Shown: positions 12,589 through 63,098, numbered from the whole stretch's first letter. The stretch is 63,098 nucleotides of DNA, filler included, from an uncultured Methanosarcinales archaeon (GCA_964398115.1; 3 parts of 3 records of this genome joined end to end with filler, not necessarily neighbours in it); one strand, 5' to 3'. A program made the numbers and translations. The notes: generated by a model not told the origin, from the sequence alone.

Positions 12589-12903
12589 ATGGAAAAAGAA
12601 AAGGTTGCTTCAGCTTTGTGCTATCTCTTTATAGGTTTGTTCTGGTACATTTTTGATAAACAATTGCAGGATGATGATTTTGTTCGGTTTCATGCTAAAC
12701 AAGCGTTTAATTTGTTTTTGATAACTATTGGTGGAGGTATATTATTGCTTTCTGTTATGATGATAACAGTTGTCTTGGCGCCTATAGTGGCTGCTTTACT
12801 AGTGGTTTTGGATTTGATAGGGATATTTTACTCTGTTACTGGACGAAAGGAAGAACTTCCTTTAATTGGAAGTTGGGCTTATAAGTATTTGACTAAAGAA
12901 TAA
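12589..12903 (+). CDS. DUF4870-like small membrane protein
   Basis: ALCY, FVRFHAKQ and ELPLIG motifs. Confidence 0.8.
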   Translation: MEKEKVASALCYLFIGLFWYIFDKQLQDDDFVRFHAKQAFNLFLITIGGGILLLSVMMITVVLAPIVAALLVVLDLIGIFYSVTGRKEELPLIGSWAYKYLTKE

Positions 12904-12946
12904 AGTATTTAAACTGTTACTTGTAAAGTAATAACCGAGGGGGTGT

Positions 12947-13813
12947 TTGAAGGTGGAAATTTTTGTTGACACGGCTGATATTGAAGAAATTAAGGAAGCT
13001 ATAGATTCTGGAGTTGTAGATGGTGTTACGACAAATCCTAGCTTGATTAAAAAAGCTCAGAGAGAGTACGAAATTGAGGATATGGAGGACTACATTTCTC
13101 AAATATTGGATGTTTGTGGTGACCTCCCAGTTAGTTTAGAAGTTACGGAAACCAGTTATGAGGGTATGAAGAAAGAAGCTAAACAGTTGAATAAAATGTT
13201 TAAGCGTAAGGGGAATCACGTTGTTAAAATTCCTGTTAATCCTAGTGATGATTATGATAATCCTGAGAGTTTTGAAGGTTTGAAATTGATTAAAGAACTT
13301 TCTGAGGATGGAATTCCTATTAATACTACGGTTGTTATGAGTCCTGAGCAGGCTGTTTTGGCTGCTAAAGCAGGTGCTGATTATGTAAGCCCGTTTGCTG
13401 GTCGTATTGATGATTACATTCGTAGGACTGAGCATGGTAGGGAGAGAGGTGAAGATTTTGAAAAGTGGGAGTATTATCCTAGTGAAGGTCGTCAGAAAGA
13501 TGATGGTACAGTGGCTCATGACAATGGTGTTGTGAGCGGTGTTGACATGGTTTGGAAAATTAGTCAAATCTTTGACACTTATGATTTTGATTGTAAAGTC
13601 TTGGCTGCTTCGACTAGGAATACGAGGCAGGTTCGTGAATTCATGCTTGCCGGGGCTGATGTTTGTACCATGCCGTTCCATGTGTTAAAGAGTTTGACTT
13701 CTCATTATAAGACTGTGGAGGGCGTGATTAGTTTTGAGAAGGATACAGTGCCGGATTATAAGGAGTTATTAGAGGAGAAGAAACGGTTTTCTATAAACTT
13801 TTCAAGTGATTAA
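12947..13813 (+). CDS. tal: Transaldolase (short TalC/MipB type, with insertions); TTG start
   Basis: FVDTA, GVTTNPS and VKIP (Schiff-base Lys); Glu in SLEV and Phe in SPFAGR favour transaldolase over fructose-6-phosphate aldolase. Confidence 0.88.
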   Translation: MKVEIFVDTADIEEIKEAIDSGVVDGVTTNPSLIKKAQREYEIEDMEDYISQILDVCGDLPVSLEVTETSYEGMKKEAKQLNKMFKRKGNHVVKIPVNPSDDYDNPESFEGLKLIKELSEDGIPINTTVVMSPEQAVLAAKAGADYVSPFAGRIDDYIRRTEHGRERGEDFEKWEYYPSEGRQKDDGTVAHDNGVVSGVDMVWKISQIFDTYDFDCKVLAASTRNTRQVREFMLAGADVCTMPFHVLKSLTSHYKTVEGVISFEKDTVPDYKELLEEKKRFSINFSSD

Positions 13814-13863
13814 CTACTCTTGAATAGAAAACTTTTTAAATCTGTTTGGTTTTTTGCAGGTAT

Positions 13864-15126
13864 ATGCTAAACAAGAAGCTACTATTGGCAACTGTAATAT
13901 TCTCAGTGTTTATAGTATCTTGTCAACCAGGGTCTGTAAATATAAATAATACTAATCAGACGAATGCTTCTTTTGGAACGAACACTTCTGTAAACAATTC
14001 TGAAAACTACACTCCGGATAATGGATATAGTGAGGATAACTTGTCACCTATAAGAGTGGATAGGGGGGTTAAAATAAACGAATCTAATTATTCAGTTGTC
14101 GTAACAGGTGTTGAAGGTGAACTTATAAAGTTAGAACCTGAAGCGATTGATCCTGATGGAGATGTTGTAAGCTTTAATTATACTAAACCATTTAACGAGG
14201 AGGGAGAGTGGAAGACTGAACTTGGAGATGCAGGACGGTACTTAGTTACTGTCAGTGCATTTGATGGTGAGGCAACTACTAGGCAAAAAGTCTTGGTTGA
14301 AATAGAGAGGAAGAATAGAAAACCTCATGTGAGTTGTCCTGATAAGATTACCGTTACGGAAACAGAATACGTTACCATAAACTGTAATATTCAAGATCCG
14401 GAAGGAGATGAAGTCGTTACTATATATAGGGGTTTTATGACTACTAAGAGGTACCAGACAACTTTCGATGATGAAGGAACTCACGAGGTTTATGTGACTA
14501 GCTGGGATAAGAAAAACGTGAATGAGAAAGTTGAAGAAACGGTTAAGGTTGTGGTTAAAGATTTGAATAGGGAACCCAAGGTTAGTTTTGACTTTGGAAG
14601 AGTTATTAATGCTAAAGAAGGAGATGTTGTTAGTGTCCAGCCTAACGTTACTGATCCTGATGGAGATAATGTAAGTATTCAATATAGCGAACCGTTTAAT
14701 GACGATGGTGTATGGAATACTGAAATTGGCGATGCCGGCAAGTACAATTCTAGCGTTGTCGTGACAGATGGGGAAAATGTTGTTAAGAAAGTTTTCCAAG
14801 TTGACTTAGCGGTTAAAAATACTGCTCCGCGTCTTGAAGTTCAGGATGAGATTAGAGTAGAGGAAGGTGACAGAATAACGTTAGATATTCAGACTTTCGA
14901 TAGAGAGGATGACGATGTTGATGTTGAAATTTCTGGATTTATGACAAGCGAGTCTTACACCGCGACTTATGACGACGCTTACCCCGGTGGTTGTAATGTT
15001 AAAGGTTGTACGGCTCACTATACCGTGACTGTAAGAGCTAGTGATGGAAGGTTGGAAAATACTAAAACAGTGGATATCTACATAGAGGATAAGAACAGGC
15101 CTCCTATCTTTAGAAGTCCAGCATGA
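13864..15126 (+). CDS. Secreted lipoprotein with tandem Ig/cadherin-like (DPDGD) repeats
   Basis: Lipobox-like IVSC; repeated D(P/R)(D/E)GD...N(R/T)xP units. Confidence 0.8.
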   Translation: MLNKKLLLATVIFSVFIVSCQPGSVNINNTNQTNASFGTNTSVNNSENYTPDNGYSEDNLSPIRVDRGVKINESNYSVVVTGVEGELIKLEPEAIDPDGDVVSFNYTKPFNEEGEWKTELGDAGRYLVTVSAFDGEATTRQKVLVEIERKNRKPHVSCPDKITVTETEYVTINCNIQDPEGDEVVTIYRGFMTTKRYQTTFDDEGTHEVYVTSWDKKNVNEKVEETVKVVVKDLNREPKVSFDFGRVINAKEGDVVSVQPNVTDPDGDNVSIQYSEPFNDDGVWNTEIGDAGKYNSSVVVTDGENVVKKVFQVDLAVKNTAPRLEVQDEIRVEEGDRITLDIQTFDREDDDVDVEISGFMTSESYTATYDDAYPGGCNVKGCTAHYTVTVRASDGRLENTKTVDIYIEDKNRPPIFRSPA

Positions 15127-15638
15127 TGTTAGAAGAGTTAATTGATAAAATTCTTTTCAAGCAAGAAAGAGTTGGCGAGAATGGCGAGTCTTTTATGATC
15201 TACAAGATCAGGACTATGGACCCTGACGTGGAAGTTTCTGATGAAAGATTAAGAAATGCGTGGAATAATAATCCTTATGGTAAAGTAGAAGATGATCCTA
15301 GAATCACTCCTTGGGGTAAGTATTTGAGACGTTGGGGTATTGATGAAATCCCTCAGTTAGTTAATGTTTGTAAGGGTGAGATGAGTGTTGTAGGTCCGCG
15401 GCCAGTGACACCTGAAGTATTTGAAACTTGGCCAGATAGTTTTCAGGAGAGATGGATTGATTACAAGCCTGGCTTGGTTCCTCCATACCTTGCAGAGGGT
15501 GTTTCTGATCCTGAAGATATTTTAGAATGTAGTATTGAGTATTTTGACAGGAAGGATGAAAATCCTGTTTTGACGGATGTTTCTTATCTTGTGCGAGGAG
15601 TTTATAATTTCTTGACAGGTCGGGTTAAGACGAAATAG
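15123..15638 (+). CDS. Bacterial sugar transferase (phosphoglycosyl transferase) catalytic domain
   Basis: FKQERVG, YKIRTM, DPRIT, IDEIPQL.NV..GEMSVVGPRP and KPGL motifs. Confidence 0.9.
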   Translation: MMLEELIDKILFKQERVGENGESFMIYKIRTMDPDVEVSDERLRNAWNNNPYGKVEDDPRITPWGKYLRRWGIDEIPQLVNVCKGEMSVVGPRPVTPEVFETWPDSFQERWIDYKPGLVPPYLAEGVSDPEDILECSIEYFDRKDENPVLTDVSYLVRGVYNFLTGRVKTK

Positions 15639-15677
15639 TAAAAACTTTTAATGAAACAAGTTTTTTTCTTTTAACGT

Positions 15678-16391
15678 ATGAAAATCAGTTTTTTCGAAGA
15701 ATTTCCTGAAATAGAGAATTTGGAAAAGTTGGAAATGGTTGGTTTCGATACTACTGTCTTTCTGGCTTGTGAAAGCGTTTCAGAATTTCGTGAATTAGAG
15801 GAAAAAGTTAAAGGTATTAATGAAGGTGTTGAGTGTGCTTATTGGCCTGTTTTGAAAGAGAGTGAGGGTTATTGGATGAGTCCTTTTAGCGACCCTGAAG
15901 CTTTGGACAGGGTTATTGATGAACTGCGAGAAGAAAAGGATTTGAAGGTTTTGTGGGATGCTGAACTTCCTTTTTTGCGGAGTAGTCTTTTCTGGAAGAA
16001 TCTGATTTATTTCTTTAGGAATAAGAGAAAGATTAGAAATTTTTTATCTGAGAAGTCTGGTGAATTGACTTTTTATAGTGCGGAATTTTTTAGTCATGAG
16101 TGGTTGATGAAAGCTTTGGGTGTTTCTTTTGATGAAAACGTTATTAAGACTCCGATGTGCTATACTAGTTTTGTTCCTGGTGCGAAGAGTGCTTTGAAAA
16201 AGTTGGATAGTAGAGCTGTGGGTCTTGGCTTGATCGCTAAAGGTGTGGGGCCGACGGATAGGGTTTTTGAGCCTAGTGATTTAAGAGAAGATTTAGAATT
16301 GGCTGAGAGTAATGGTGTTAACGAGGCTATTATTTTTCGCCTTGGGGGTTTGAATGAAGATTACTTAGAGGTTATAGAGGATTTTGTATGA
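15678..16391 (+). CDS. Hypothetical protein, possibly TIM-barrel
   Basis: 237-aa ORF; overlaps the next gene by ATGA. Confidence 0.65.
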   Translation: MKISFFEEFPEIENLEKLEMVGFDTTVFLACESVSEFRELEEKVKGINEGVECAYWPVLKESEGYWMSPFSDPEALDRVIDELREEKDLKVLWDAELPFLRSSLFWKNLIYFFRNKRKIRNFLSEKSGELTFYSAEFFSHEWLMKALGVSFDENVIKTPMCYTSFVPGAKSALKKLDSRAVGLGLIAKGVGPTDRVFEPSDLREDLELAESNGVNEAIIFRLGGLNEDYLEVIEDFV

Positions 16392-17212
16392 GGAAGGAAA
16401 GCTTTGATCTTGGAAGCCACACTGGTTGGGTTTATGATTATTTGGATGAGCCCGTGGGTGATGATGAGGATGAATATGTTGAGAGGGTGGTTGATAAAGT
16501 GCCGGAGATTGGCGATATCGGCTTTGGTGGTTATGCGCAAAAGCAGGGTTTGATGGCTCAGTTAAGAAGTCATGTCTTTAGTGACAGTGGTGAGTTTGAA
16601 GAGTATGAAGTTCCTGAGTACTTGGATATTTTGAAGGATGGTTTGAGGGAGTGTGAGCACTTGTTTAAGAATGATTTGTTCATTTTTGTTTTCCCTACTT
16701 TTAATGAGTTTATTTTGGAGGAGATGAATGGTGTGAGTGGTTATTGTCAGTGGCGTAACACTATTTTATTATTTGTCAATCCTGTTAGTGGGTGGCGTAG
16801 GGCTTTGAAGGAGTGTGTCGTTCATGAGGCTTGTCATGCTATCAGGTTGAATGATTTTGAGTGGGATGATTTGAAAGATGGCTTGGTTTTTGAAGGTTTG
16901 GCGGAGCATTTTAGAGAGTATTTTGTTGGTGGTGAAAAAGCTAATTGGGTTGAAAAATTCACTAAGGAGGAGGCTTTGGATCATTTGGATGAAATAAAAA
17001 ATGATTTTGCCAGTCAGGATCGTGAGGTTTATAAGGAAGTTTTTTATGGTACTGGGGATTATCCGCATTGGATTGGTTATAGTATTGGTTATTACATTGT
17101 TGAAGGATATTTAGAAAGTTTGGAAAGTGTGGGTTGGGAGGAGGTTTTGGAGACTCCTCCTCATAGGATTATTATTGAAAGTCCTTTTACTACTCCACTA
17201 GCCAGGGAATAG
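16388..17212 (+). CDS. DUF2268-type Zn-dependent protease
   Basis: HEACH (HExxH), EGLAE and GYSIGY motifs. Confidence 0.85.
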   Translation: MRKESFDLGSHTGWVYDYLDEPVGDDEDEYVERVVDKVPEIGDIGFGGYAQKQGLMAQLRSHVFSDSGEFEEYEVPEYLDILKDGLRECEHLFKNDLFIFVFPTFNEFILEEMNGVSGYCQWRNTILLFVNPVSGWRRALKECVVHEACHAIRLNDFEWDDLKDGLVFEGLAEHFREYFVGGEKANWVEKFTKEEALDHLDEIKNDFASQDREVYKEVFYGTGDYPHWIGYSIGYYIVEGYLESLESVGWEEVLETPPHRIIIESPFTTPLARE

Positions 17213-18554
17213 ATTTTTTCACGTTTTCGTATGTTTCTTTGTCATCTAGTTTTTTGCAAGAGGCTTTGACTATTCTTTTTAGCCTTTCTGGTTTTTTCGC
17301 GAAGCTTATCATTCGGAATTTCCCTATTTCGCTGTATGGTCCCATATTTCCTGGTATGTTTCCTTCTGGGAATTTTTTATTGTAGAGTGTGTTGCCGAGT
17401 TTTTGTTTTAAGTCTTTGAAAGTTCCTGGATTGGTTTGTACGTTGTAGCTTACGAGTTGGACATTTTCGTGTCTTTCTTGCAGTTTCTCGTATACGTAGG
17501 CTATGGGGCTTGCTCCGGTCATTCTGGCGTTGCATTCTGTTGGGACGTATGGTGGGTGGTCGGTGTCTAGTTGTGGTGTTTTTATGAAGTCGAAACCGAC
17601 GGTTTCTCCTTTGAATCCTCTTCTTCTCATGGCATCGGCTAGTTTCTTTCCTGTTTTGAAGAGGTAGTCTTCGTCTTTTTTTGGTAGTCCGCTTGGGTAG
17701 AAGTTTCCTAGGTGTACGTGGTTTTCATCTAGTACTTGTCCGCTTACTGGGCTTAAGACTTCTATTCCTTTTTTCTTTACTCTGAATATTTGGCTGGGAC
17801 TGACTTCTGCTTCGTGGTAGGGTTCTATTAGGAACTTGTCTGCTTCGTCGTCGTTTTTGATGAACTTTATCGTTTCTTTTATTTCGTTTTTGGTACAGGT
17901 TTTGTTTGCGCTACTGCTTGCACCGATGTTTCCTCGTATGAATATTTTGTCTCCGTATTCTTCGAATGCTTGTTTTAATTTTTTCTTTATCTCTTTCTCT
18001 TTTTTGTTTTCTATTATTTTGTGTGGTAGTGTGGTGATGTCTAGTTCGTCGCAGAGTTTTTTGAAGTAGACTTTGTCGTTAAATTTTTGGCTTAACTTGG
18101 TTGTGGTTCCTGAGTATTCTGCTCCTATGTATTGTGCGAATTCTTTTACGTGGTCGGAGCTACTGAATGGTATTACTACTTTTGGTTTTCCGATTGTGTC
18201 TTTCTTTATCTTTTGGGCTACTTCGCTTTTGAGATCATTGTCTTCTGATAGTCTTTTCATCACTGGTGTGTTGTCTTCACTATCTCCTACAGCTATTATG
18301 TTTCCGGGTTTTGGTCCGAATCCTATTGTGTTTAAGTATTTCACCCATTCTTTGTCGTATTGTTTGTCGTGGATTATGACTTTGTCTTGTTTTCTGGCTA
18401 GTAGTATGAATCGTTGGTCGTATTTGCTGGCTCCGTCTACTTTGTTTAGGATTCCTTGGAGACCGTCTACTCCGTAAACGTCGCCGCTGAGAATTCTGAT
18501 CTTGTTTTTGTATCCAGAGTCGTAGCTTTTTACTGGTCTGCTTTTGAGTTTCAC
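17190..18554 (-). CDS. ATP-grasp fold ligase (PGM1 peptide-ligase-like); GTG start
   Basis: PF..S, NDKVYFK, LIEPY, SPS, GNFYP, GFDFI and ECNARMTG motifs. Confidence 0.75.
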   Translation of the reverse strand: MKLKSRPVKSYDSGYKNKIRILSGDVYGVDGLQGILNKVDGASKYDQRFILLARKQDKVIIHDKQYDKEWVKYLNTIGFGPKPGNIIAVGDSEDNTPVMKRLSEDNDLKSEVAQKIKKDTIGKPKVVIPFSSSDHVKEFAQYIGAEYSGTTTKLSQKFNDKVYFKKLCDELDITTLPHKIIENKKEKEIKKKLKQAFEEYGDKIFIRGNIGASSSANKTCTKNEIKETIKFIKNDDEADKFLIEPYHEAEVSPSQIFRVKKKGIEVLSPVSGQVLDENHVHLGNFYPSGLPKKDEDYLFKTGKKLADAMRRRGFKGETVGFDFIKTPQLDTDHPPYVPTECNARMTGASPIAYVYEKLQERHENVQLVSYNVQTNPGTFKDLKQKLGNTLYNKKFPEGNIPGNMGPYSEIGKFRMISFAKKPERLKRIVKASCKKLDDKETYENVKKSIPWLVE

Positions 18555-18587
18555 GGTTGTGAATGTTCAGATTTAGAACTTTATATA

Positions 18588-18953
18588 TTATGGGGTGTAT
18601 GTGTTTTTGAAGTATTTTAGGAATTTTTCTGTTTTTGGTTTGAGTCTGGGTTTGGTTGAGAGTATGTTTTGTCCTAGTCCTTTGTTTTCTCTTAGGTAGT
18701 TGTTGTATAGTGTTGCCCATAGTAGGGCTTCTCTGGTGTATTGTGCTTGTTCTTCGTCTTTTATTTGTGTTGTGTCTATAGATTGGGTTATCTCTGCTAG
18801 TGTTTTTTTATCTGCTGGTTTTCCAGATAGAATAGTTTCTAAGTGTCCTAAGAATGATTTGAATTTTGGATTGTTTCTTATTTCGATTGTGGAGTCTAAG
18901 TTTATCTCTTCGACTTTGAAGTTTTCTAGTATGTTTGTGTCGTTTTTGAACAT
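18588..18953 (-). CDS. Hypothetical protein
   Basis: 121-aa ORF with TATA-like sequence upstream. Confidence 0.6.
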   Translation of the reverse strand: MFKNDTNILENFKVEEINLDSTIEIRNNPKFKSFLGHLETILSGKPADKKTLAEITQSIDTTQIKDEEQAQYTREALLWATLYNNYLRENKGLGQNILSTKPRLKPKTEKFLKYFKNTYTP

Positions 18954-19035
18954 GTCAGTTTTAGAGAAAAATCTTTTGTTTATAACTTTTTCTATTCTTG
19001 TTTACTTTTGAGTGAAAACAACTTTTTCTAAATGT

Positions 19036-19066
19036 TTATTGTCTATATAGAAGAATAATTAGTGGT
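19036..19066. promoter_or_regulatory. Repeated imperfect palindrome, copy A (TTATTGTCTATATAGAAGAATAATTAGTGGT)
   Basis: Near-identical to the reverse complement of 30728-30758 and similar to 22533-22554. Confidence 0.65.
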
Positions 19067-19102
19067 AAACATTTTTATACCGCTCCATTTTTCCTTTATT
19101 TT

Positions 19103-20629: not shown

Positions 20630-21173
20630 ATACTTCATATTATTCTTAGTTTTGATAGTTCCGGTTCATGGAATTGTTATGAATGAAAATACTGACGAAT
20701 TGCCGAAGGGTTGTGAAGAAATAAGTGGTAGTGAGAGTATTGTGGTAAGAGCGGGGGAAATGTTTGCACGGAATGACTCTGCTATTTTTACTTATGACAG
20801 ACCAGAGGTAGAGGTTGAGCCGTGTACTAAGTTAACGGTTACTTTGGTGAATGAGGATGATGTGAGGCATCAATGGATGGTTCATGGCTTGCCTGGTGAT
20901 ACTTATCCTATGAATATGTTCACGGTAGAGGTGACTGGGCCTGGTAATGAAACGGGTACTTTCATCGTCCCGGGTGAAGATAAGACTTATAGGGTTCATT
21001 GTGGGGTTTCTCAACATGAGGATAAAGGTATGAAGATGCAGTTAGTAGTTGGTGACGGAAGTGGTGATTTAAGTCATATCCCTGGTTTGGATGATTCGGA
21101 CTATCTGTTTTTGGGTTTTGCAAGTTTAGTTGTTAGTTTTCTAGTGGTCGTGTTCTTTAACCGAAACCTTTAA
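20619..21173 (+). CDS. Membrane-anchored cupredoxin (blue copper protein)
   Basis: HQW and C-x4-H-x4-M (CGVSQHEDKGM) ligands; signal peptide and C-terminal TM. Confidence 0.85.
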   Translation: MKIEYFILFLVLIVPVHGIVMNENTDELPKGCEEISGSESIVVRAGEMFARNDSAIFTYDRPEVEVEPCTKLTVTLVNEDDVRHQWMVHGLPGDTYPMNMFTVEVTGPGNETGTFIVPGEDKTYRVHCGVSQHEDKGMKMQLVVGDGSGDLSHIPGLDDSDYLFLGFASLVVSFLVVVFFNRNL

Positions 21174-21193
21174 AAGAAAGTTGTTGTTACTAA

Positions 21194-21646
21194 GTGGTGA
21201 AAATGAAGTCTTTGAGAGACATCGTTGCAATAGCTTCAATCCCAATCGTAATAGCATGCGGTCCGGAACAAACCTTACAAGACGAGGTAGAAAATACCGA
21301 GATAGAATACACTCTAGAGGGAGACAAAAACAGTGGAACTCTAACCGCTAATGCAGGAGATTTAGAAACCACTCTACAAGGTAACTTCAACCACTTTCTT
21401 AATCCACCAGAGAAGGACAAAATTGGAAACGTACCGAGAAAATTAACAGGTCAATATAGGATCAAAGTAAACTTTGACGGAAAAGAATGCTACGTTCCAA
21501 GAGGAGAATGGGATGATGCTTCCATGAAAAAATATGAAGAAACACCTAAATGCAATGAGTACACAAGTCAAATAGCAACAAAAGCTCTACAGTTATCATT
21601 ACAAGATGCATTCCCTGAACTCGTTAAAAACTCTCGAAAACGTTAA
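21194..21646 (+). CDS. Hypothetical lipoprotein
   Basis: Short signal peptide ending IVIAC-G. Confidence 0.6.
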   Translation: MVKMKSLRDIVAIASIPIVIACGPEQTLQDEVENTEIEYTLEGDKNSGTLTANAGDLETTLQGNFNHFLNPPEKDKIGNVPRKLTGQYRIKVNFDGKECYVPRGEWDDASMKKYEETPKCNEYTSQIATKALQLSLQDAFPELVKNSRKR

Positions 21647-21672
21647 ATAAAGGTTTTAACAAATAAACAGGT

Positions 21673-22237
21673 ATGGTAATCAAATTTTTCAAAGAACGTC
21701 GATATTTACTCATTTCAATATTTCTCATCGCGTTAATGCCCTCATATAAGTCATGCAATATTCAAAATCCAGATGTTCTTTCTTATGGATTTCCGTTCTA
21801 CGCCCTAGAAGGAAGTTGGGCTGGAGCATTACCCAATTATAACCAATTATTCTGGTTCGGTCTATTCCTCAACCTTTTAATTTTAGGCGGTTTATACGTC
21901 GTCTTATACTATAAAATGGGTGAAAAAAGTTTTGATAAATTTGTGAAAGGATTTTCGATAATACCTCTTTACTTGGTAGTAACTGGTTTTCTATGGTTTT
22001 TAGAAAATTATACCCTTGGAACATCTATTCATCCGCGCACCAGCTATGGTTTTCTACAACATGGGCGAGGCTATGATGAACGTCGGTAGAGAAGGGATTA
22101 TACAATTCTTCAATTTTGGAGTTGGAGTAAGCGCAGATGGTGCAATGCGGGTTATAGTATTACTTTTTTCACTAGGAATAGGTGCTTTATGGACTTTGCT
22201 ATCAGAAAAAGAAGAAAATGAAATAAGTTTAAGTTAA
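21673..22237 (+). pseudogene. Membrane protein split into two overlapping frames (probable single-base frameshift near 22005)
   Basis: Hydrophobic ORF 21673-22089 continues in the frame of 22016-22237; removing one A from AGAAAATT restores ...WFLEIIPLEHLF... Confidence 0.55.
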
Positions 22238-22246
22238 AGATTGTTT

Positions 22247-22477
22247 TTAGACGCCTTCTCTGTCTTCAGTTCTGGCTTGTTCGTATCCTCGTACGAAACC
22301 TGCTTCGCCAGGAGTTATTTCACCGGCTTCTTCTTCATCTTGAAGTTCTTTCTCCATCTGTTTGTCCATCATGTCGTCCGGTGTGAACTGTCTTTCACAG
22401 TCCAAACATTCAAAAAGGCTTTCGTTGACGGGCGTCACGTTCGTGCTGTCGCAAAATGGGCAGTTTGTTAATTCCAT
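22247..22477 (-). CDS. Small Zn-ribbon protein with acidic tail
   Basis: CPFC...CLDC. Confidence 0.75.
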   Translation of the reverse strand: MELTNCPFCDSTNVTPVNESLFECLDCERQFTPDDMMDKQMEKELQDEEEAGEITPGEAGFVRGYEQARTEDREGV

Positions 22478-22532
22478 GCCCTTGATTTAATCCTTGTCCT
22501 TTTTAAATCTATTGAAAAATTTTACAAAATAA

Positions 22533-22554
22533 TTATTGTCTATACAGAAAAGAA
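22533..22554. promoter_or_regulatory. Repeated imperfect palindrome, copy B (TTATTGTCTATACAGAAAAGAA)
   Basis: Shares TTATTGTCTATA-Y-R-GAA with copies A and C. Confidence 0.55.
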
Positions 22555-22598
22555 TTATTCCCAAACAAATAAAATACTCAAACAATACTACACCAAAT

Positions 22599-23199: not shown

Positions 23200-23201
23200 A
23201 A

Positions 23202-24134: not shown

Positions 24135-24224
24135 AGACTGGAACTTAGTAATCTATTTTATAAAAAATTATTCCAAAAAATATTGATGAAAGTTATTTAA
24201 GAGGCTAAATCATACGTTTTAAAC

Positions 24225-50449: not shown

Positions 50450-50475
50450 TTTAAGAAGAAATACACAGTTAGGTT

Positions 50476-50583: not shown

Positions 50584-50623
50584 AACAAAGAAGTTCTCAA
50601 AACAGTTATTAAAACTTATCGAT

Positions 50624-51853: not shown

Positions 51854-51886
51854 AGGAGAAAATAAAATTTTACAAATTTTATAAAG

Positions 51887-52279: not shown

Positions 52280-52381
52280 AAAGGTGTTTATCTTGGTTTT
52301 TGCTATTAATAGTTTTCCCTCAAATTTCACCGTAAAGATTTAAAACGCAGAACTACTTCGACACAGGTAGGTGAAAGGGAC

Positions 52382-53812: not shown

Positions 53813-54378
53813 TCTCTTAAAACTTCAGCTTCTTCTTTAGTCAAGTCAATTATCTTCGAAGGAGTCCCTTCTATAGGTCCTTCATAAATGCTATAATCAC
53901 AAGCTTTCTCTAACTGGTCATCCAAATCATCAATCTCCTTCATAAAATTACTACCCGTGACATTTGCAGAAGTGGTGATAACAGGAACTTTCATATCTTC
54001 AACTACAGAAGTAAACCAATGATCCGGTCTCCTAACTCCTATAGTGTCAAGTCCAAGATTTGTATTTCGACAGACCGCGTCTTTATTTTCCAAATTCAAG
54101 ATGAAAGTGTAAGGTCCAGGAAGTTTATCAATCCACTCTTCACTTTTTTCGTTAATCTCACAATTTTCTCTAATCCAATCCATGCTGGGAGCGATAACAG
54201 ATAAAGGTCTGGAGAATTGTTCCTTTGCTTTTCTCAAGTCTTTAACTAAGTTTCTGTCAGTAGCGTTACAACCTATACCGTAGACTGTATCTGTTGGGTG
54301 GATGAAAAGGCAATCTCTAAGTTCTCTGACTATCTTTATTCTTTCTTTTTTAAATTCTTGTTTTGTGATTACCCTCAT
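53809..54378 (-). CDS. tsaC: Threonylcarbamoyl-AMP synthase (TsaC/Sua5, short form)
   Basis: PTDTVYG, PGPYT and TTSAN motifs. Confidence 0.9.
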   Translation of the reverse strand: MRVITKQEFKKERIKIVRELRDCLFIHPTDTVYGIGCNATDRNLVKDLRKAKEQFSRPLSVIAPSMDWIRENCEINEKSEEWIDKLPGPYTFILNLENKDAVCRNTNLGLDTIGVRRPDHWFTSVVEDMKVPVITTSANVTGSNFMKEIDDLDDQLEKACDYSIYEGPIEGTPSKIIDLTKEEAEVLRD

Positions 54379-54411
54379 AAGAAGAGGAGGATGTAGAAGG
54401 AGTATAAAAAG

Positions 54412-54546
54412 TTAATCCCCGCGGATGGTGCCGCGGAGAAATTGGATGTAGTCCTCCTCTTCTGTTGGGTTAATTAAGTTGTGGCGCAAAAGGGTGTTTA
54501 CTATGTTTTTTGGGTAGACTTTGCGGTTTAGTTCAGAGCAGAGCAT
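54412..54546 (-). CDS. 44-aa small ORF (not in ORF track)
   Basis: AGGTGA upstream of ATG; MLCSELNRKVYPKNIVNTLLRHNLINPTEEEDYIQFLRGTIRGD. Confidence 0.6.
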   Translation of the reverse strand: MLCSELNRKVYPKNIVNTLLRHNLINPTEEEDYIQFLRGTIRGD

Positions 54547-54653
54547 AATTTCACCTTCGCAGTTGCTTTTGTAGTTGCTCCTGATGTTGTCTTGACTTGT
54601 TCAAACAGTAATTCCTCGATTTCTTCTTGATTGTGCCCATTGGTTGGCATCAT
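54528..54653 (-). CDS. 41-aa small ORF (not in ORF track)
   Basis: AGGTGAT upstream of ATG; MMPTNGHNQEEIEELLFEQVKTTSGATTKATAKVKLCSALN. Confidence 0.55.
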   Translation of the reverse strand: MMPTNGHNQEEIEELLFEQVKTTSGATTKATAKVKLCSALN

Positions 54654-54771
54654 TGTAATCACCTTTTGTCTCTTTTTTTTTCACGGAGGTGCTAGCGCGA
54701 TTATTCTATCCTTGATTTGAGTAGAAATCATTTATAAGGCTCACACGCCTAAATGTCCAGTGTGTCCAGTG

Positions 54772-55368
54772 CTATTTCTGGTCATAAAGAACTTTAACTT
54801 GCTTTTCTAAATCGGAAACAGTGCTGGAATTATCTAAAACGTGATCAAAATCGACTTTTTCCTTCAAAGGATTCCAATACTTTCTATTTTCAACTTCATC
54901 TTCTTCGACTATTCTCGAATGAGAAATTTCATCTCTTTCTTTCCATCTTCTATATCGAATACTATCTGAGCATTTAATCCAATATTTATCGTGGGGTATT
55001 CCAGCACGTTCAGGGAATTGAAGCATTTCTTCCTGTCGGAAAGATGGTATGACTAGTGATTCATCATAATGGACAATGGCTAGATCAGAGAAATGGTTGT
55101 AATTTGACTTTTTCTTTAATAATCTATTTAGTACATCCCCTAAAAGTATTAAATCCGCTCTTTGGTTGGTATTGTAAAAACGTAAGTTATTAGGTAATTT
55201 TACATCTATCTCTTCAGAAATTTCACTTCGGAAAGAATCACTCTTTACTAACGGTTTTAGTAAATGTTCGCTCATGGAGATTTTTCTAGCCTTGGTCAAT
55301 CGTGTTATAATATCTGCAGTAGTGTCTTTTCCACTTGCTGGCTTTCCAGCTATGAAGTGTAATTCCAT
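54772..55368 (-). CDS. P-loop kinase (nucleoside-monophosphate / dephospho-CoA kinase-like)
   Basis: GKPASGKDT Walker A; R..R lid; LDNSS near the C-terminus. Confidence 0.8.
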   Translation of the reverse strand: MELHFIAGKPASGKDTTADIITRLTKARKISMSEHLLKPLVKSDSFRSEISEEIDVKLPNNLRFYNTNQRADLILLGDVLNRLLKKKSNYNHFSDLAIVHYDESLVIPSFRQEEMLQFPERAGIPHDKYWIKCSDSIRYRRWKERDEISHSRIVEEDEVENRKYWNPLKEKVDFDHVLDNSSTVSDLEKQVKVLYDQK

Positions 55369-55460
55369 ATTTAGTTAAGAAATATAAATTGTTTTTTATA
55401 GGCTTAAGTCAGGAATTATTGACTTACACTTATTTAAAACCCTTCTTCTTACAGTTTTAC

Positions 55461-56180
55461 ATGGGAGATTTCATACTGAGTCATGAGGAAAGGAAGAAGA
55501 TATTTAAGGTTCTTACTGAGGAGAAAGAGTTGAATTTTAACAGTATAAAGGACTATACTGGTTTGCAGAGTAATAAATTGAGTTATCAGTTGGAGAAGAT
55601 GAAAGAGAAAAACTTTGTTAAAAAAACTGAAAGTGGTGATTACACTCTTACTGTACGTGCTCAACGTTTAATTCCTTATTTTTCTCAAATATTCAAGCAA
55701 GAAGTTGGTGTGTTACCAGTGGTTTTGGGTATTGTTAGGAATAATGATAAAATTTTGTTGATTAAAAGGAATAAAATGCCGTACAAAGGTTATTGGGGTT
55801 TGTTTGGTGGTAAACAAATAAATGGTGAAACTATACCACAAGCGATTGAAAGGGAAGTTTTAGAAGAGAGTAATTTACAAGTTGAATTTAAGGATGTTAA
55901 TGGTGTAGTTTGTGAAAGAGTTAAGGAAGATGATCGGTTTAAACACACCTTTTTATTGATTATAACAACAGTTGAAGCGGATAGTTTTGACGTAGAAAGC
56001 CAAGATGAGGGTGAAGTGAAATGGTTTGATTTTGAGAAAGTTTTGAATGGAGAGGTTGAGAATGTAATACCTTCTGATTTGCTATTTCTTGAAAGATATC
56101 ATGATAATAGTACGAGTGTGGATCATGTTGTGATGGATGAATCTGGAGATGAACTAGTCTTGAAAAAACAAAATTTATAA
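55461..56180 (+). CDS. Winged-helix HTH fused to a Nudix domain
   Basis: N-terminal ArsR-like wHTH; Nudix box GGKQINGET..AIEREVLEE. Confidence 0.88.
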   Translation: MGDFILSHEERKKIFKVLTEEKELNFNSIKDYTGLQSNKLSYQLEKMKEKNFVKKTESGDYTLTVRAQRLIPYFSQIFKQEVGVLPVVLGIVRNNDKILLIKRNKMPYKGYWGLFGGKQINGETIPQAIEREVLEESNLQVEFKDVNGVVCERVKEDDRFKHTFLLIITTVEADSFDVESQDEGEVKWFDFEKVLNGEVENVIPSDLLFLERYHDNSTSVDHVVMDESGDELVLKKQNL

Positions 56181-56197
56181 ATTATTCTTAAGAGAGA

Positions 56198-57034
56198 ATG
56201 GAAGGTATGAGTGGTCGTAGTAATAACAATAAATACTGGCAGGACAGGTTTGATAACCTAACTGATGAGCTTGAAGTGATAAAATCTAATTTAGGATATT
56301 TCTTTGGAGACAGGTTTGAAAAAGTAATTAGCCAAGATAGTTTGGAGGAAGTTTGGCAAGCTTTATTCACACAATTCTTAAGCGGGAATTTGAAGGAACA
56401 CGTTTGGTTTTTAGACAAGTATGAAAAGAAACTTACCGAGTTTTATAATGAAGTTAATGGAGAAGAATTTGAATCTTTGAGAAGAGGATATGAAATGGTC
56501 ACAGAAGTTTCTTTTAAGATAGCTAGAGAGTTCATAGGAGAGTACGCGAATGTTGAAGACAAGTCTAAATTACAACTTGGTGGTTCTTATAAGACGAAGA
56601 TGAGAGACAACTTCCTTGAAGGGATAGAATTATTTTTTAAAAACGTGCACAAAGCCATTGCAGAGTCTAAAACTATAGATGATAAAAGGTTAAGAAAGTA
56701 TATATTAAATCAAAATATAGGTTTGGGAAAATATTATCGATATAACAAATCAAATAGTGATTACGCTAGTTATAATCGTATTCAAAAATTAAATAGAAAG
56801 GAGTTGAAGAAAGTGTTTAATTTACTTGAGAAAAGACCTGATGTTAAGGAGAGGAGTATAAACAGTTGGATTGATTTAGGTACGAAAAAAGATCCGGTTA
56901 GGATATTGTTGCATGGAAAGAAAGGTGATAGAGAGAATGTTTACTACATATTCCGTAATAACAATACTGAAAAAGAGGATTACAAACGAGTTTTGGGAAT
57001 GGATGCTCGTCGTGTAGATTTTGAAGCAGCCTGA
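56198..57034 (+). CDS. Hypothetical protein
   Basis: 278-aa ORF; helical N-terminus, basic C-terminal part. Confidence 0.65.
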   Translation: MEGMSGRSNNNKYWQDRFDNLTDELEVIKSNLGYFFGDRFEKVISQDSLEEVWQALFTQFLSGNLKEHVWFLDKYEKKLTEFYNEVNGEEFESLRRGYEMVTEVSFKIAREFIGEYANVEDKSKLQLGGSYKTKMRDNFLEGIELFFKNVHKAIAESKTIDDKRLRKYILNQNIGLGKYYRYNKSNSDYASYNRIQKLNRKELKKVFNLLEKRPDVKERSINSWIDLGTKKDPVRILLHGKKGDRENVYYIFRNNNTEKEDYKRVLGMDARRVDFEAA

Positions 57035-57459
57035 TTTTCTTGATAAAATTCTAGTATTTCTTCAAGATAAGGTTCAAAACTTCCTATTTCGTCAGGGGGT
57101 ATCTCGTATTGAGATCCTTTTCCGTGTTCTTCGAAACCTTTCTTGATAAGAAATAAAATCGTCTCGGCTAAGTCTTGATGTTGTTCAAACGAACTTCCAG
57201 GGTTTAAATCGTTTAAAGTCTCTATCGCTCCTCGTGTATCTCCCACCATTGTTATATAAGAACTTTGTTCTCTTCCAAAATAGCCTAGTGATAGTTTCTC
57301 TTTCGGATTTCTCCTTCCAATTTGTAAATGCTGTTTTGCGATTTCAAAAGAGGGAGTTGGATTTACTATAAAGTAGGGCGATTTTTCTTCGTAAGACAAG
57401 TTTGGGGTGTCTTCAAATCTTCCTCTTAAGTTCTCATGTATGTCTCTTAGATCTTTCAT
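56980..57459 (-). CDS. Hypothetical protein
   Basis: 159-aa ORF with TATA-like sequence upstream. Confidence 0.6.
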   Translation of the reverse strand: MKDLRDIHENLRGRFEDTPNLSYEEKSPYFIVNPTPSFEIAKQHLQIGRRNPKEKLSLGYFGREQSSYITMVGDTRGAIETLNDLNPGSSFEQHQDLAETILFLIKKGFEEHGKGSQYEIPPDEIGSFEPYLEEILEFYQENQAASKSTRRASIPKTRL

Positions 57460-57500
57460 GGATTGTTTTCAGAAAATTGTTTTCTTTAAAAAAGTACGTT

Positions 57501-58324
57501 TTATTCGTAATCGGTTAGTTTTTTGGAAACAATAGTGGTGTTTCCGCCTTCTCCAGTTTGTTTTTCAGTCTGGATGAATTTTCCTTCGTCTAACTTGTTG
57601 ATTTTTCTTTGAAATGTTTTGTAAGTGCTTTCTCCACCTTGGTCTTTGTACTTTTGGTATAAGTCTCCAATTTTTTCTCCACTGTTACCTTTGACAATGT
57701 CTAGTATGAATTGCATCTCGTCTCCTAACTCGTCTTTGTCTTTCACTGTGAATTGGTCTAATTTCTTTATCGCTTTCGAAACATCTTCCTTTGTTATTTT
57801 TTTCGAGCTTCTACTTTCTGCGTTTATAGCTGCTTCTTTTAGTAAGAAAATTCCTGATCTGATGTCTTGTATTTGATATGTCTTTTTTATGACTTTATTT
57901 AAAGCGTCTTCTTCCCAGACGTCGTCGTAGAAAGCATATTCTAATCTGCTTTTGATAACGTCTTTTGTTTCGCTTCTGTTGTATGGTTCGAATTCTATAA
58001 CTTCTGGGGTGAGTCTGGATTTAATCCTGCTGTCCATTTGGGCTAGGAAGTCTTCTTCGTTAGTGATTACTATTATGGATTTTTTGTATATCTCTTCTAA
58101 GAGGAAGTATAGAAAGTCGTAGTCTTCTGCTTTGTCTATTTCATCAAATACGAACACTGCAGCGGTTTTATTTATTATATTAGATACTACGTTTTGCAAG
58201 TCGCTAGTTTTCTTATTGTGAGTGAGCCGGTAACCTATTTGTTCGCAGATTTCCATTAATATCTTGTAGGTGGTGTTTTTCTGCCAACAGTTTATGTAGA
58301 TAGAGTGGATTTCTTGAGTTTCTT
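57501..58324 (-). CDS. cdc6: Cdc6/Orc1 family AAA+ replication initiator (5'-truncated at contig end)
   Basis: YINCW upstream in frame; VFDEIDK, RIKSRL, FEPY and DIR motifs; short C-terminal wHTH. Confidence 0.9.
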
Positions 58325-62229: not shown

Positions 62230-62232
62230 GGT

Positions 62233-62565
62233 TTATCCCTGCATGTTGCCCATGAGTTCTTGTTGTAGGTTTTGAGCTTTTTCTTTAAGTTGGCTTTCTT
62301 GGTTTTCTAAACTTTTGCTTCTTTTTTCAAGTTTTTCTTTCTTTTCTTCTAATTCTTCTCTTAAACTGTCTTTGTCTCGGGAAACCATGATGTTTCCGAT
62401 TATCTTGTAAGCTTCTCCTTCTCCTTCAAGCTCGTCGAGGGCGCTTTCGACTTCTACAAGTTGAGATTCTGTCATCTGCTTTTGCATTGAGAAGTTCTGC
62501 ATGTTTTGCTCCATTTGTTGGAGCTGACCGATTTTTTGTTGCATATCTTCTTTTTCATCACTCAT
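62233..62565 (-). CDS. pfdB: Prefoldin beta subunit
   Basis: Coiled coils flanking YKIIGNIMV; conserved gene context. Confidence 0.93.
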   Translation of the reverse strand: MSDEKEDMQQKIGQLQQMEQNMQNFSMQKQMTESQLVEVESALDELEGEGEAYKIIGNIMVSRDKDSLREELEEKKEKLEKRSKSLENQESQLKEKAQNLQQELMGNMQG

Positions 62566-62571
62566 TGTATC

Positions 62572-62799
62572 TTAAACCTCTTTCATTTTTTCGTAAACTT
62601 TGAGTTTTTTTGCGATTGCATCCAGGACTGCTCGCAACGCGCTTGCGTCTTGAGCATTTATCTCGAATACAATTTCTTCATCTCGTCTTAATACTTTATA
62701 GTTTGCACGATTGTTTTTGAAATCTTTATCTTCTGCCTCGAAAACTTTGTAGATGTTGTCTGCATCGCCCTCTGCGGTGAGAGTGGCTTCGTATTTCAT
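62572..62799 (-). CDS. pcc1: KEOPS complex subunit Pcc1
   Basis: I.AQDASALRA motif; lies between rpo12 and pfdB. Confidence 0.85.
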   Translation of the reverse strand: MKYEATLTAEGDADNIYKVFEAEDKDFKNNRANYKVLRRDEEIVFEINAQDASALRAVLDAIAKKLKVYEKMKEV

Positions 62800-62933
62800 C
62801 GTGCTTTTACAGTGGTGGGTTGTGTTCTTTCTTTATAGATGATTTTTGACCCACAATATACGCATCTGATTTTTTTGCGGATATGTTTTTCTTTGATAGT
62901 TTTGTTACAGTCGAAGCATTTGTATTCACTCAT
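62796..62933 (-). CDS. rpoP: RNA polymerase subunit P (Rpo12) (not in ORF track)
   Basis: MSEYKCFDC...IRCVYCGSKIIYKER...VKAR. Confidence 0.93.
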   Translation of the reverse strand: MSEYKCFDCNKTIKEKHIRKKIRCVYCGSKIIYKERTQPTTVKAR

Positions 62934-63098
62934 TGACGGACACCTCTTCCTTGAAGCTTTCTTCCAAGTCTGTTCTAATATCTTCTGTTTCTTTAACTTC
63001 GTATGCTTTGTTTGTGAAGGTAGTGTCGCATTTTCTGCAGTGCCAGATCCCGACTGCTTTTCTTTTCACTTTTTTGTATTTGCAGTATCGGCATTTGA
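62926..63098 (-). CDS. rpl37ae: Ribosomal protein L37Ae (5'-truncated by window edge)
   Basis: KCRYC...VKRKAVGIWHCRKC motif. Confidence 0.93.
   Translation of the reverse strand, partial: KCRYCKYKKVKRKAVGIWHCRKCDTTFTNKAYEVKETEDIRTDLEESFKEEVSVNE

Follow-up and report, generated by a model that had tools for sequence, protein, structure and literature searches.

A saw-tooth of third-codon-position strand skew along a small DPANN genome, and its possible origin in many fixed sites of replication initiation

What makes a strand of this DNA drift from A/C-rich to G/T-rich over several kilobases, whichever way its genes point, and then flip abruptly back? The earlier note raised this question for a stretch of 63,098 nucleotides (hereafter, the window) and ascribed the pattern to many fixed, bidirectionally acting sites imposing a mutational asymmetry that decays with distance. 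The source analysed is the small genome of an uncultivated DPANN archaeon (Woesearchaeota-type), represented by a single metagenome-assembled genome (MAG) of 67 contigs and 1,002,954 bp with low depth (~5x in public runs). Three of its contigs (C10, 1–29944; C11, 30045–58324; C37, 58425–63098) make up the window, set apart by N spacers, with 10-N scaffold gaps at 23048, 32716, and 49879. Skew was expressed per ORF as KM3, the third-codon-position keto skew (G+T minus A+C, plus strand), with D as the difference in KM3 across a junction; the genome-wide set comprised 1076 crudely called ORFs. The window contains the following features.

59–18953, both strands: rising ramp on C10 through 18 ORFs, KM3 +0.13 (59–1537) to +0.84 (18588–18953)
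18954–19102, no strand: partial drop in a divergent spacer, KM3 +0.84 to +0.37 (at 19103)
21119–21220, no strand: sharp drop 1 (change-point support interval), KM3 +0.44 to −0.32 at 21173/21194, D = −0.60
21194–27537, no strand: ramp of a 6.4-kb domain (C10 21183–27589), KM3 −0.32 to +0.65 (27211–27537), near-linear, r2 0.81
27514–27653, no strand: sharp drop 2 (change-point support interval), KM3 +0.65 to −0.39 (at 27642), D = −0.79 to −0.80
27642–29832, no strand: beginning of the next ramp, KM3 −0.39 to +0.11, interrupted by the end of C10
29945–30044, no strand: N spacer, artificial join of C10 and C11
30732–46389, no strand: long ramp on C11, KM3 −0.47/−0.72 (30.7–37 kb) to +0.32 (45696–46160)
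46317–46445, no strand: sharp drop 3, KM3 +0.32 to −0.68, D = −0.84 to −0.86 (change-point support interval C11 16273–16339, i.e., window 46317–46383)
46446–58256, both strands: 12-kb ramp, KM3 −0.68 to +0.52 (57501–58256)
57501–58324, minus strand: second Orc1/Cdc6 paralogue, at the ramp top and running off the end of C11
58502–62565, no strand: partial ramp on C37, KM3 +0.08 to +0.55

Genes on both strands presented the codon usage that had been described by eye. Plus-strand genes at 15678–17212, said to use T/G-ending codons, presented KM3 values of +0.50 and +0.61, and for the stretch at 30844–36163, said to use almost only A/C-ending codons, plus-strand genes at 31386–36163 presented values of −0.42 to −0.72; the mirror image in minus-strand genes was also found (+0.75 and +0.84 at 17190–18953 versus −0.68 and −0.60 at 46446–47458). 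Pfam-confirmed genes in the C10 ramp include a plus-strand transaldolase (+0.50) and a minus-strand Cbf5 (+0.48), while the strongly negative part of the C11 ramp (30.7–37 kb) includes the ribosomal L10 gene, and the 46446–58256 ramp contains pyruvate kinase (minus strand), RtcB (plus strand), and archease (minus strand). Three of the five listed flips (21190, 27600, and 46445) are sharp drops, and the partial step reported near 19040 corresponds to the fall between 18954 and 19102; the flips at 22530 and 30780 are invalid as stated, since KM3 is −0.06 before and −0.13 after the former, and the latter lies 0.7 kb inside C11, beside the artificial join, where it is unmeasurable with 1.5-kb flanks. 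The third contig, described as a ramp from A/C to G/T, does rise, but begins near zero rather than A/C-rich. Sharp drop 1 sits between two plus-strand genes separated by just 20 bp, and sharp drop 2 is located in a 104-bp AT-rich divergent spacer. The partial drop is spanned by one public-run contig (18043–19171), whereas no bridging of the sharp drops at 21190 and 27600 was found among the listed independent contigs from public runs.

Across the genome, the saw-tooth was confirmed far beyond chance. KM3 ranged from −0.84 to +0.84, and strands alternated between G/T-rich and A/C-rich every 5–50 kb by gradual rises and abrupt falls, with 36 distinct drops versus 14 distinct rises at |D| ≥ 0.5, and 20 versus 5 at |D| ≥ 0.7. 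The 1689 differences between 500-bp bins had a skewness of −0.73 (contig bootstrap 95% interval −0.95 to −0.45) and included 28 drops below −0.6 versus 6 rises above +0.6. Drops were pinned to ~100–200 bp near promoter-bearing spacers (median support interval 123 bp), and ramps were monotonic over at least 10 genes. All 14 domains bounded by two drops (5.6–55 kb) start negative, and 13 of them end positive; slope per kb falls with domain length (Spearman −0.96), and in place of the proposed decay over distance no fixed length was found, as the ramp stretches to span the distance between sites. Above 30 kb, domains are composite (r2 0.20–0.63), and plateaus of 25–30 kb at about −0.5 and +0.5 occur on C8 and C9. 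One origin/terminus pair is insufficient for such a pattern, as had been argued; many fixed sites, each sharply localised and acting on both sides, structure the skew. No motif common to the 36 drops was found, the only enriched 8-mer being compositional.

The data support the skew as a mutational property of the DNA strand, independent of transcription direction. Plus-strand KM3 is positively correlated between neighbouring genes on opposite strands, with r = 0.74 among convergent pairs (n = 175) and 0.53 among divergent pairs (n = 153), or 0.79 (n = 23) and 0.25 (n = 22), respectively, when only homology-confirmed genes are used; 143 spacers of 80–400 bp track the flanking KM3 in all four orientation classes (r = 0.77, slope 0.36), while codon positions 1+2 track it with a slope of only 0.18. 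The direct coding-strand effect is ~0.08–0.15. Ramps run from ~−0.7 to ~+0.7 with mirror-symmetric base frequencies; at their extremes, one and the same strand has a C/(C+T) of 0.13 and a G/(G+A) of 0.80, whereas both ratios are ~0.36 in neutral zones, and the extremes have a slightly higher GC3 (0.40 versus 0.36). These values indicate real protection of the spared strand. The saw-tooth is not explained by codon selection, expression, sequencing error, or rearrangement mosaics. Skew variation was much weaker in the eight sampled relatives. A congener (G001) presented a weaker, partly syntenic version, in which two syntenic blocks, including one opposite-strand gene, share the sign of the skew but reach roughly half its amplitude; the C11 block at 30732–46389 is syntenic with this congener, with the same sign and about half the amplitude.

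One sign change of the skew coincides with a predicted canonical ORB/cdc6 origin, located as follows.

C8:385–690 (outside the window), no strand: predicted canonical oriC with four ORB-like dyads, directly upstream of orc1/cdc6

The dyads (core TTCCAnATGAA, three of four with a GGGG string) are inverted around an AT-rich stretch, and orc1/cdc6 is followed by the PolD DP1 and DP2 genes. The two 1-kb flanks have KM3 values of +0.73 and −0.16 (D = −0.89), and flanks of 1.5 kb give a D of −0.70 (rank 22 of 851 junctions); coding-strand KM3 climbs from −0.76 in cdc6 and reaches +0.61 at 12 kb. The A/C-rich strand is the one whose 5′-to-3′ direction points away from the predicted oriC, the reverse of bacterial polarity, in which the leading strand is G/T-rich. 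The ORB origin of congener G001 presented the same all-position polarity; the cdc6-DP1-DP2 operon of another relative (G018) is likewise A/C-rich on its coding strand, which counts against the replication-based reading given below. Because drops favour divergent promoter-bearing spacers and a coding-strand effect exists, the drop signal, oriC included, is partly confounded with gene orientation. Full ORB-plus-G-string elements were found just at oriC and at C19:12640, the latter a ramp top without a drop; no ORB element was found at 33–34 of the 36 called drops; of the remaining ones, two have half-site clusters and one lies near the lone ORB. ORBs flanking an AT-rich unwinding element, as in Orc1/Cdc6-ORB origins, were found only at oriC and not at most called drops. 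Five intergenic clusters with three or more copies of the ORB half-site (GTTTCA/TGAAAC) per 100 bp were identified; among the three with measurable flanks, two coincide with strong drops (D of −0.68 and −0.82), whereas D at the third is +0.18. The spacer immediately upstream of the second cdc6 paralogue presented no drop, and a strong drop with an ORB-half-site cluster lies on C14, ~1.9 kb beyond the start of this paralogue; the end of C11 overlaps the start of C14 by 786 bp at 92% identity, a strain-level overlap between contigs.

Judging from sequence, we give a probability of about one half to the reading that the saw-tooth records strand-asymmetric mutation that depends on the direction of replication forks, which would start at many fixed sites and terminate at scattered positions. 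Forks would initiate at each sharp drop and travel outwards; the strand whose 5′-to-3′ direction points outwards (the leading-strand sense) would drift to A/C and its complement to G/T, as either the leading-strand template or the nascent lagging strand undergoes net C-to-T and A-to-G change. Forks from neighbouring sites would meet at variable places, so that the share of rightward and leftward forks, and hence the equilibrium composition, would shift gradually from one site to the next. Besides the predicted oriC, the remaining 30–45 drops per Mb would be initiation sites. Of the mechanism initially proposed, the mutational, strand-of-DNA character stands, and one site is the predicted canonical origin; ssDNA exposure at loading or nicking sites does less well, as an either/or fork direction fits the protected poor strand at ramp extremes better than extra exposure. 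Several drops lie in spacers of 0–34 bp, too short for a classical archaeal origin, which counts against initiation there. No archaeon is known to use more than about four origins.

An unlikely alternative is that the asymmetry is linked to transcription, with transcripts that start at promoter-bearing spacers extending many kb outwards, across genes on both strands, as polymerase density falls, so that the template gains C-to-T and A-to-G changes or the non-template strand is spared. Drops do lie at gene starts (20 of the 36 divergent, 14 co-directional, and only 2 convergent), and between co-directional genes they occur at 15.3% of the 131 spacers of at least 80 bp but at only 3.9% of the 256 spacers of up to 30 bp, a ~4x difference; coding-strand KM3 is below −0.3 in 142 and above +0.3 in 49 of 368 homology-confirmed genes, and it climbs from 5′ to 3′ within genes, the 3′ third being more G/T-rich than the 5′ third in 104 of 148 genes of at least 450 codons (p = 8e-8). 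However, the sign does not follow the gene, as convergent neighbours share a common plus-strand skew, and the 49 contrary genes, e.g., transaldolase, would need dominant antisense read-through from promoters 4–10 kb away. The coding-strand KM3 of orthologues in relatives is, moreover, barely conserved (correlations of 0.23, −0.005, 0.13, and 0.15). Transcription-associated bias as known from E. coli and mammals also enriches the non-template strand in G/T, the opposite of the polarity here. Damage to the non-template strand is cited in an excerpt of PMC12999951.

It is quite unlikely that fixed sites are repeatedly broken, nicked, or used for helicase loading, after which 5′-to-3′ resection or unwinding would leave the 3′-ending strands on both sides to deaminate as ssDNA, less so with distance. 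This explanation, among those offered in the earlier note, suits the sharpness of the sites and ordinary ssDNA deamination without sign inversion, the strand with its 3′ end toward the site being G/T-rich; yet the other strand, expected at baseline, is spared ~seven-fold relative to neutral zones, GC3 near the sites is higher rather than lower, slope scales with domain length, and the 25–30-kb plateaus and the lack of a site motif at the 36 drops also count against it. We regard as very improbable a model that keeps bacterial polarity, with drops as fixed fork-convergence (termination or barrier) sites and initiation dispersed within domains, e.g., by recombination-dependent replication. Sign inversion would then be unnecessary, and bacterial polarity is seen in relative G027, where the ORB/cdc6 origin (~213.6 kb) lies near the cumulative KM3 minimum (228.6 kb), at an amplitude of ~0.1; origin-independent replication in archaea is also mentioned in the excerpt of PMC12999951. 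However, the predicted canonical origin is on a drop instead of an upward crossing, and genes point away from drops, so that forks would meet most of them head-on (within strongly skewed regions, the regionally A/C-rich strand is the coding strand of 205 of the 345 genes). Least credible is that a genome with strong two-replichore skew has been turned into a mosaic by many inversions, translocations, or foreign insertions, or that assembly chimeras produced the pattern: synteny with the congener breaks at one drop, sharp rises exist, and strain-level overlap occurs between contigs of this fragmented MAG, but inverted blocks predict equal up and down steps and flat blocks instead of the excess of drops and the monotonic ramps observed, ORFs and protein-family matches are unbroken, and 44 of 46 (run X1) and 32 of 32 (run X2) pieces from the public runs match at ≥99% identity.

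Compared to known systems, the saw-tooth resembles prokaryotic replication-associated GC/TA skew in being independent of gene strand, strongest at third positions and in non-coding DNA, and changing sign at a predicted ORB/cdc6 origin; it differs in that its sign changes dozens of times per Mb rather than twice, in its ramps instead of plateaus, and in a polarity inverted with respect to bacteria. Mammalian N-shaped skew domains show sharp jumps at fixed origins and a linear return; the combination of one sharp and one gradual flank, with slope inverse to domain length, is found here as well, but with mirrored polarity, over 5–55 kb rather than at Mb scale, in an archaeon, and with far higher amplitude. 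The term for these domains is used in PMC4729899 and PMC4319821. The vertebrate mitochondrial strand-displacement gradient, attributed to C and A deamination, is comparably extreme at silent sites and likewise graded along the molecule, but stays on one strand with no sign change, unlike the ramps here, which are symmetric about zero and repeated many times. A precedent for the inverted polarity comes from Haloferax volcanii, in which cumulative GC skew, both at third positions and in non-coding DNA, peaks locally at an origin, according to an excerpt of PMC12999951; skew is weak and mapped origins are few there, and that excerpt describes no kb-scale saw-tooth. The same excerpt gives archaeal skews as three to four times weaker than bacterial ones, whereas the amplitude here reaches 0.8.

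Replication from many fixed sites can be put in more specific, and more doubtful, terms: tentatively, this 1-Mb DPANN chromosome may be copied from roughly 40–50 fixed sites spaced 5–50 kb apart, few with ORB boxes and most at promoter-bearing spacers, with stochastic termination between them. If true, this would represent a eukaryote-like replicon organisation, recorded in the sequence by unusually strong strand-specific mutation with inverted polarity.

The MAG of this uncultured archaeon (G000) totals 1,002,954 bp in 67 contigs, with a G+C content of ~38%, and is represented in the window by the following features:

1–29944, contig C10
30045–58324, contig C11
58425–63098, contig C37
23048, 32716 and 49879, three 10-N scaffold gaps
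49955–50028, + strand, tRNA-Val (GAC), within a minus-strand gene run

Adjacent contigs are joined through N spacers. The protein families predicted in the window with Pfam (Cbf5/dyskerin-type pseudouridine synthase, RtcB, archease, prefoldin, ribosomal L10/P0, and an Orc1/Cdc6 lid domain) mark the host as an archaeon. ORF calling was crude, keeping the longest ORFs of ≥80 aa that do not overlap (1076 genome-wide), and strand skew was measured as KM3, i.e., (G+T−A−C)/n at third codon positions, read on the + strand throughout. Two long antisense ORFs on the minus strand (30732–31442 and 33892–34143), both within strongly skewed + strand genes, lack the usual first- and second-position purine bias and are probably spurious.

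KM3 per ORF climbed from +0.13 to +0.84 between 59 and 18953, fell partially to +0.37 at 19103, flipped from +0.44 to −0.32 at 21173/21194 (between two + strand genes separated by 20 bp), climbed to +0.65 by 27537, and flipped to −0.39 at 27642. Contig C11 rose from about −0.5/−0.7 at 30.7–37 kb to +0.32 at 46160, flipped to −0.68 at 46446, and then ramped to +0.52 at 58256, while C37 ran from +0.08 to +0.55. The saw-tooth that an earlier note had described by eye was thus recovered, with flips at 21173/21194, 27642, and 46446 and the partial step that it had placed near 19040; the gene sets that it had contrasted by codon usage also agree numerically, and many of these genes, on both strands, are Pfam-confirmed. 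Its step at 30780, with an artificial contig join only 0.7 kb away, is not valid as stated, and its single ramp from A/C to G/T on the third contig holds for the climb to +0.55 and fails for the start, which is near zero (+0.08) rather than A/C-rich. No flip was found at 22530, where KM3 is −0.06 before and −0.13 after. The 56-bp spacer at the third drop (46390–46445) includes an almost perfect hairpin (stem of 8 bp, loop of 6 nt, AAACC and GGGTTT flanks), which resembles a terminator or protein-binding palindrome.

One rival explanation of these steps is a mosaic produced by rearrangement or assembly. The assembly was compared with public sequencing runs (Logan contigs, depth ~5x): an identity of at least 99% was reached by 44 of the 46 X1 pieces and by all 32 X2 pieces, and X1 covers each of the 30 bins. 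Read continuity over the steps, which the earlier note had proposed to confirm, was obtained in part; among the contigs listed, one bridges 19040 and none bridges 21190 or 27600. One X1 contig matches the window only over 33 bases (22528–22560) and diverges on both sides, coinciding with the flip claimed at 22530, where KM3 shows none; this match may represent a short repeat or a strain-level rearrangement.

Genome-wide, reverse-complementing leaves the saw-tooth shape unchanged, which makes contig orientation irrelevant, and the asymmetry of the shape is significant. The 1689 successive differences between 500-bp bins had a skewness of −0.73 (contig bootstrap 95% interval −0.95 to −0.45), with 28 drops below −0.6 vs. 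6 rises above +0.6; a 1.5-kb matched filter found 20 drops and five rises among steps of at least 0.7. At the level of gene junctions (n = 850), D (the KM3 change across a junction) was −0.5 or lower at 48 and +0.5 or higher at 19, representing 36 distinct drops and 14 distinct rises. KM3 was correlated genome-wide between adjacent genes on the same strand (r = 0.72 for 281 ++ pairs and 0.79 for 301 −− pairs) and between opposite-strand neighbours (r = 0.74 for 175 convergent and 0.53 for 153 divergent pairs), bearing out the earlier claim that gene orientation does not explain the skew. When the comparison was restricted to the 379 of 1071 ORFs for which the fetched portions of four relatives contain a homologue, r was 0.76 (70 ++ pairs), 0.91 (66 −− pairs), 0.79 (convergent, 23 pairs), and 0.25 (divergent, 22 pairs). 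Superimposed on this was a smaller, additive effect of the coding strand, coding strands being A/C-richer by ~0.08–0.15 (KM3 vs. strand, r = −0.30).

Several observations point to mutation rather than selection as the origin of the skew. Third-position GC and TA skews co-vary (r = 0.83), codon positions 1+2 track KM3 with a slope of only 0.18, and spacers of 80–400 bp (n = 143) track the KM3 of their flanks in every orientation class (r = 0.77, slope 0.36). Coding-strand KM3 of orthologues correlates weakly with that in G000 (0.23 for 42 pairs in G001, −0.005 for 55 in G002, 0.13 for 268 in G027, and 0.15 for 227 in G018, all relatives), indicating that the skew is not a property of genes or their expression. 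A sequencing-damage or bisulfite-like artefact was ruled out by the concentration of the signal at third positions, by intact frames and protein-family matches, and by the concordance of the two runs. At the extremes, + strand composition reaches T 0.52, G 0.32, A 0.08, and C 0.08, or the exact mirror, in genes of either strand; C/(C+T) on one strand falls to 0.13 and G/(G+A) climbs to 0.80 (both ratios are ~0.36 in neutral zones), with GC3 slightly higher at the extremes (0.40) than in neutral zones (0.36). Read as transitions only, this would mean that the damaged strand gains damage while the opposite strand loses it, and an either/or process fits better than extra exposure over a symmetric baseline; the purine fraction shifts from 0.59 to 0.40, so transversions also contribute.

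Likelihood change-points placed the drops within ~100–200 bp of gene junctions (median support interval 123 bp, which is too narrow because the two-level model ignores ramps); the junction fell inside the support interval in 19 of the 36 drops, and some change-points lay 80–240 bp into a gene. In 104 of 148 genes with at least 450 codons, the coding strand was richer in G/T over its 3′ third than over its 5′ third, indicating that the ramp continues through genes. Of the 14 domains delimited at both ends by a drop on the same contig (5.6–55 kb), all start negative and 13 end positive, and slope per kb scales inversely with domain length (Spearman −0.96, n = 14; domains >30 kb are composite); plateaus of ~25–30 kb at roughly −0.5 and +0.5 occur on contigs C8 and C9. 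Motif discovery on the steps, which the earlier note had proposed, was run on the 36 drops against 289 control spacers and yielded no shared motif; the sole strong k-mer, AAAAAGAC (10 of 36 drops vs. 6 of 289 controls), follows local skew in its 156 genome-wide copies, and its enrichment is therefore compositional. The single family-B DNA polymerase gene (C21:5332–7671, minus strand) starts at a strong drop (D = −0.82).

One drop coincides with a predicted replication origin. The relevant loci are:

C8:3–374 (minus strand) and C19:1–825 (+ strand), main orc1/cdc6, split over two abutting contig ends, with the PolD DP1 and DP2 genes next
C8:385–690, outside the window, candidate oriC directly upstream of orc1/cdc6; four ORB-like dyads, three with a G-string, inverted about an AT-rich stretch
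C5:2427–2495, ORB half-site cluster, D = −0.68
C14:2949–2992, ORB half-site cluster 1.9 kb past the start of the second cdc6 paralogue, D = −0.82
C2:16713, ORB half-site cluster, D = +0.18

The dyads at C8:385–690 are, by their resemblance to the consensus, putative origin recognition boxes (ORBs). Support for this identity comes from ORB-like elements upstream of cdc6 in G001, where the arrangement (L113:3450–3870) is the same as at the G000 locus, and from an inverted ORB-like pair upstream of cdc6 in G027, found by direct reading, which revealed only AT-rich repeats in G018; a search with the G000-type ORB pattern, covering G027 and 800 kb of G018, gave 0 matches. C8:385–690 is a predicted canonical archaeal oriC. 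KM3 is +0.73 within 1 kb on its cdc6 side vs. −0.16 on the other side (D = −0.89); with 1.5-kb flanks, D is −0.70, ranking 22 of 851 junctions. Away from it, coding-strand KM3 is −0.76/−0.67 in cdc6, then −0.47 and −0.22, and reaches +0.61 at 12 kb. The sole other full ORB genome-wide (C19:12640) lies at a ramp top with no drop. ORB half-sites form eight clusters in the genome, five of them intergenic; two of the three with measurable flanks are on strong drops. No clusters of GTGTGAA with at least four copies were found. The 3′ part of the second cdc6 paralogue is at 57501–58324 in the window; the end of C11 (57495–58324) aligns with C14:1–786 (786 bp at 92.4% identity), and the two are probably one locus in two strains, which would make these contigs neighbouring, the alternative being two paralogous Orc1/Cdc6 genes.

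The spread of 1-kb KM3 is 0.371 in G000, 0.178 in G001 (same genus), 0.103 in G002 (same family), and 0.076–0.157 in six genomes of the same order. The strong skew is accompanied by a large compositional shift (G+C 38% in G000 vs. 50–57% in G001 and G002). In two syntenic blocks (C3 60–68 kb and C11 1–15 kb, i.e., window 31–45 kb), G001 has the same sign at about half the amplitude, including at an opposite-strand gene; in a third block (C3 18–37 kb), its skew does not match. The strand that leads 5′ to 3′ outward from a drop is A/C-rich, the reverse of the bacterial leading-strand rule. A 2026 survey (PMC12999951) places an origin of Haloferax volcanii at local maxima of cumulative GC skew, in third positions and non-coding DNA, an inverted polarity like that of the G000 drops. 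The ORB/cdc6 origin of G027 (~213.6 kb) is close to the cumulative KM3 minimum (228.6 kb) with an amplitude of ~0.1, i.e., with bacterial polarity, so the strong process in G000 is not merely the background of its relatives at higher amplitude; in G027, the extremes of gene orientation fall at 88.5 and 709.5 kb, away from those of skew at 228.6 and 589 kb. In G018, a complete 1.3-Mb relative of which 800 kb were fetched (C1, 1–400 and 560–960 kb; L033–L052 and L074–L093), + strand third positions are A/C-rich in nearly every 10-kb bin, for genes of either orientation and with no sign change at cdc6 (764 kb), which is odd for a bidirectionally replicated circle. Neither G027 nor G018 settles the polarity of G000.

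The best-supported reading, to which we give a probability of about one half, is a mutational asymmetry linked to the direction of replication forks, in which the drops would be fixed initiation sites, many in number, and termination would be spread out between them; the saw-tooth would then be a mirror-polarity analogue of mammalian N-domains. The fork-direction model accounts for the independence from gene strand and the signal in silent sites and spacers, for the sharp drops, gradual rises, slope–length scaling, and plateaus, for the sparing of one strand at the extremes and the drop at oriC, and for the modest preponderance of genes oriented away from drops (205 of 345 genes where regional skew is strong; 142 vs. 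49 among strongly skewed confirmed genes). Its weaknesses are that 33 of the 36 called drops lack an ORB element, that some drops are in spacers of 0–34 bp, and that the drop signal is in part confounded with gene orientation, also at oriC; the coding strand of the cdc6-DP1-DP2 operon in G018 is likewise A/C-rich. One to four origins are known in archaea, and the origin density that the model requires has no known precedent. Long-range transcription read-through is a rival for which the same junctions are relevant: genes flanking the 36 drops are divergent in 20, ++ in nine, −− in five, and convergent in two, the drop spacers resemble AT-rich promoter regions, and drops between co-directional genes are ~4 times as frequent in spacers of at least 80 bp (15.3% of 131) as in those of at most 30 bp (3.9% of 256); opposite-strand neighbours nevertheless share their skew. 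Fixed break, nick, or loading sites with resection are a second rival, and fixed termini with dispersed initiation a third, against which stands the drop at the predicted oriC.

No obvious repair loss lies behind the high amplitude. NucS, EndoV, and PolB are each encoded by a single open frame, as are the PolD subunits. A family-4 UDG gene (PF03167), which may or may not be intact, is represented by two matching pieces at C3:43874–44373 with a 10-N scaffold gap between them and stop codons just before the gap; a UDG match is absent in 14 of 31 relatives, and those sampled (G002, G003, G007, and G027) have far weaker KM3 variation than G000.

The saw-tooth of G000 belongs with replication-type skew, and its silent-site skew is comparably extreme to that of animal mitochondria. 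No description of kb-scale saw-tooth skew in an archaeon was found in the open-access papers searched. Strand-specific mutational skew in archaea is argued to be generally weak in the 2026 survey (PMC12999951), a generality to which G000 runs counter, its skew being extreme and switching sign dozens of times per megabase; amplitude and number of switch sites contradict current generalisations on archaea. Codon-usage and GC-skew tools can mislead on such genomes, e.g., through spurious antisense ORFs in strongly skewed stretches, and the spread of 1-kb KM3 provides a simple statistic for spotting further cases. Should the switches be initiation sites, the genome sequence would in itself be a fork-direction map of an uncultivated organism and would imply dense, largely ORB-independent origin usage in an archaeon, a directly testable reading that, if true, would bear on the emergence of eukaryote-style multi-origin replication. 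Whatever the cause, a site-anchored bidirectional process that rewrites codon usage at kb scale, and in part amino-acid usage too, represents unexplained biology.
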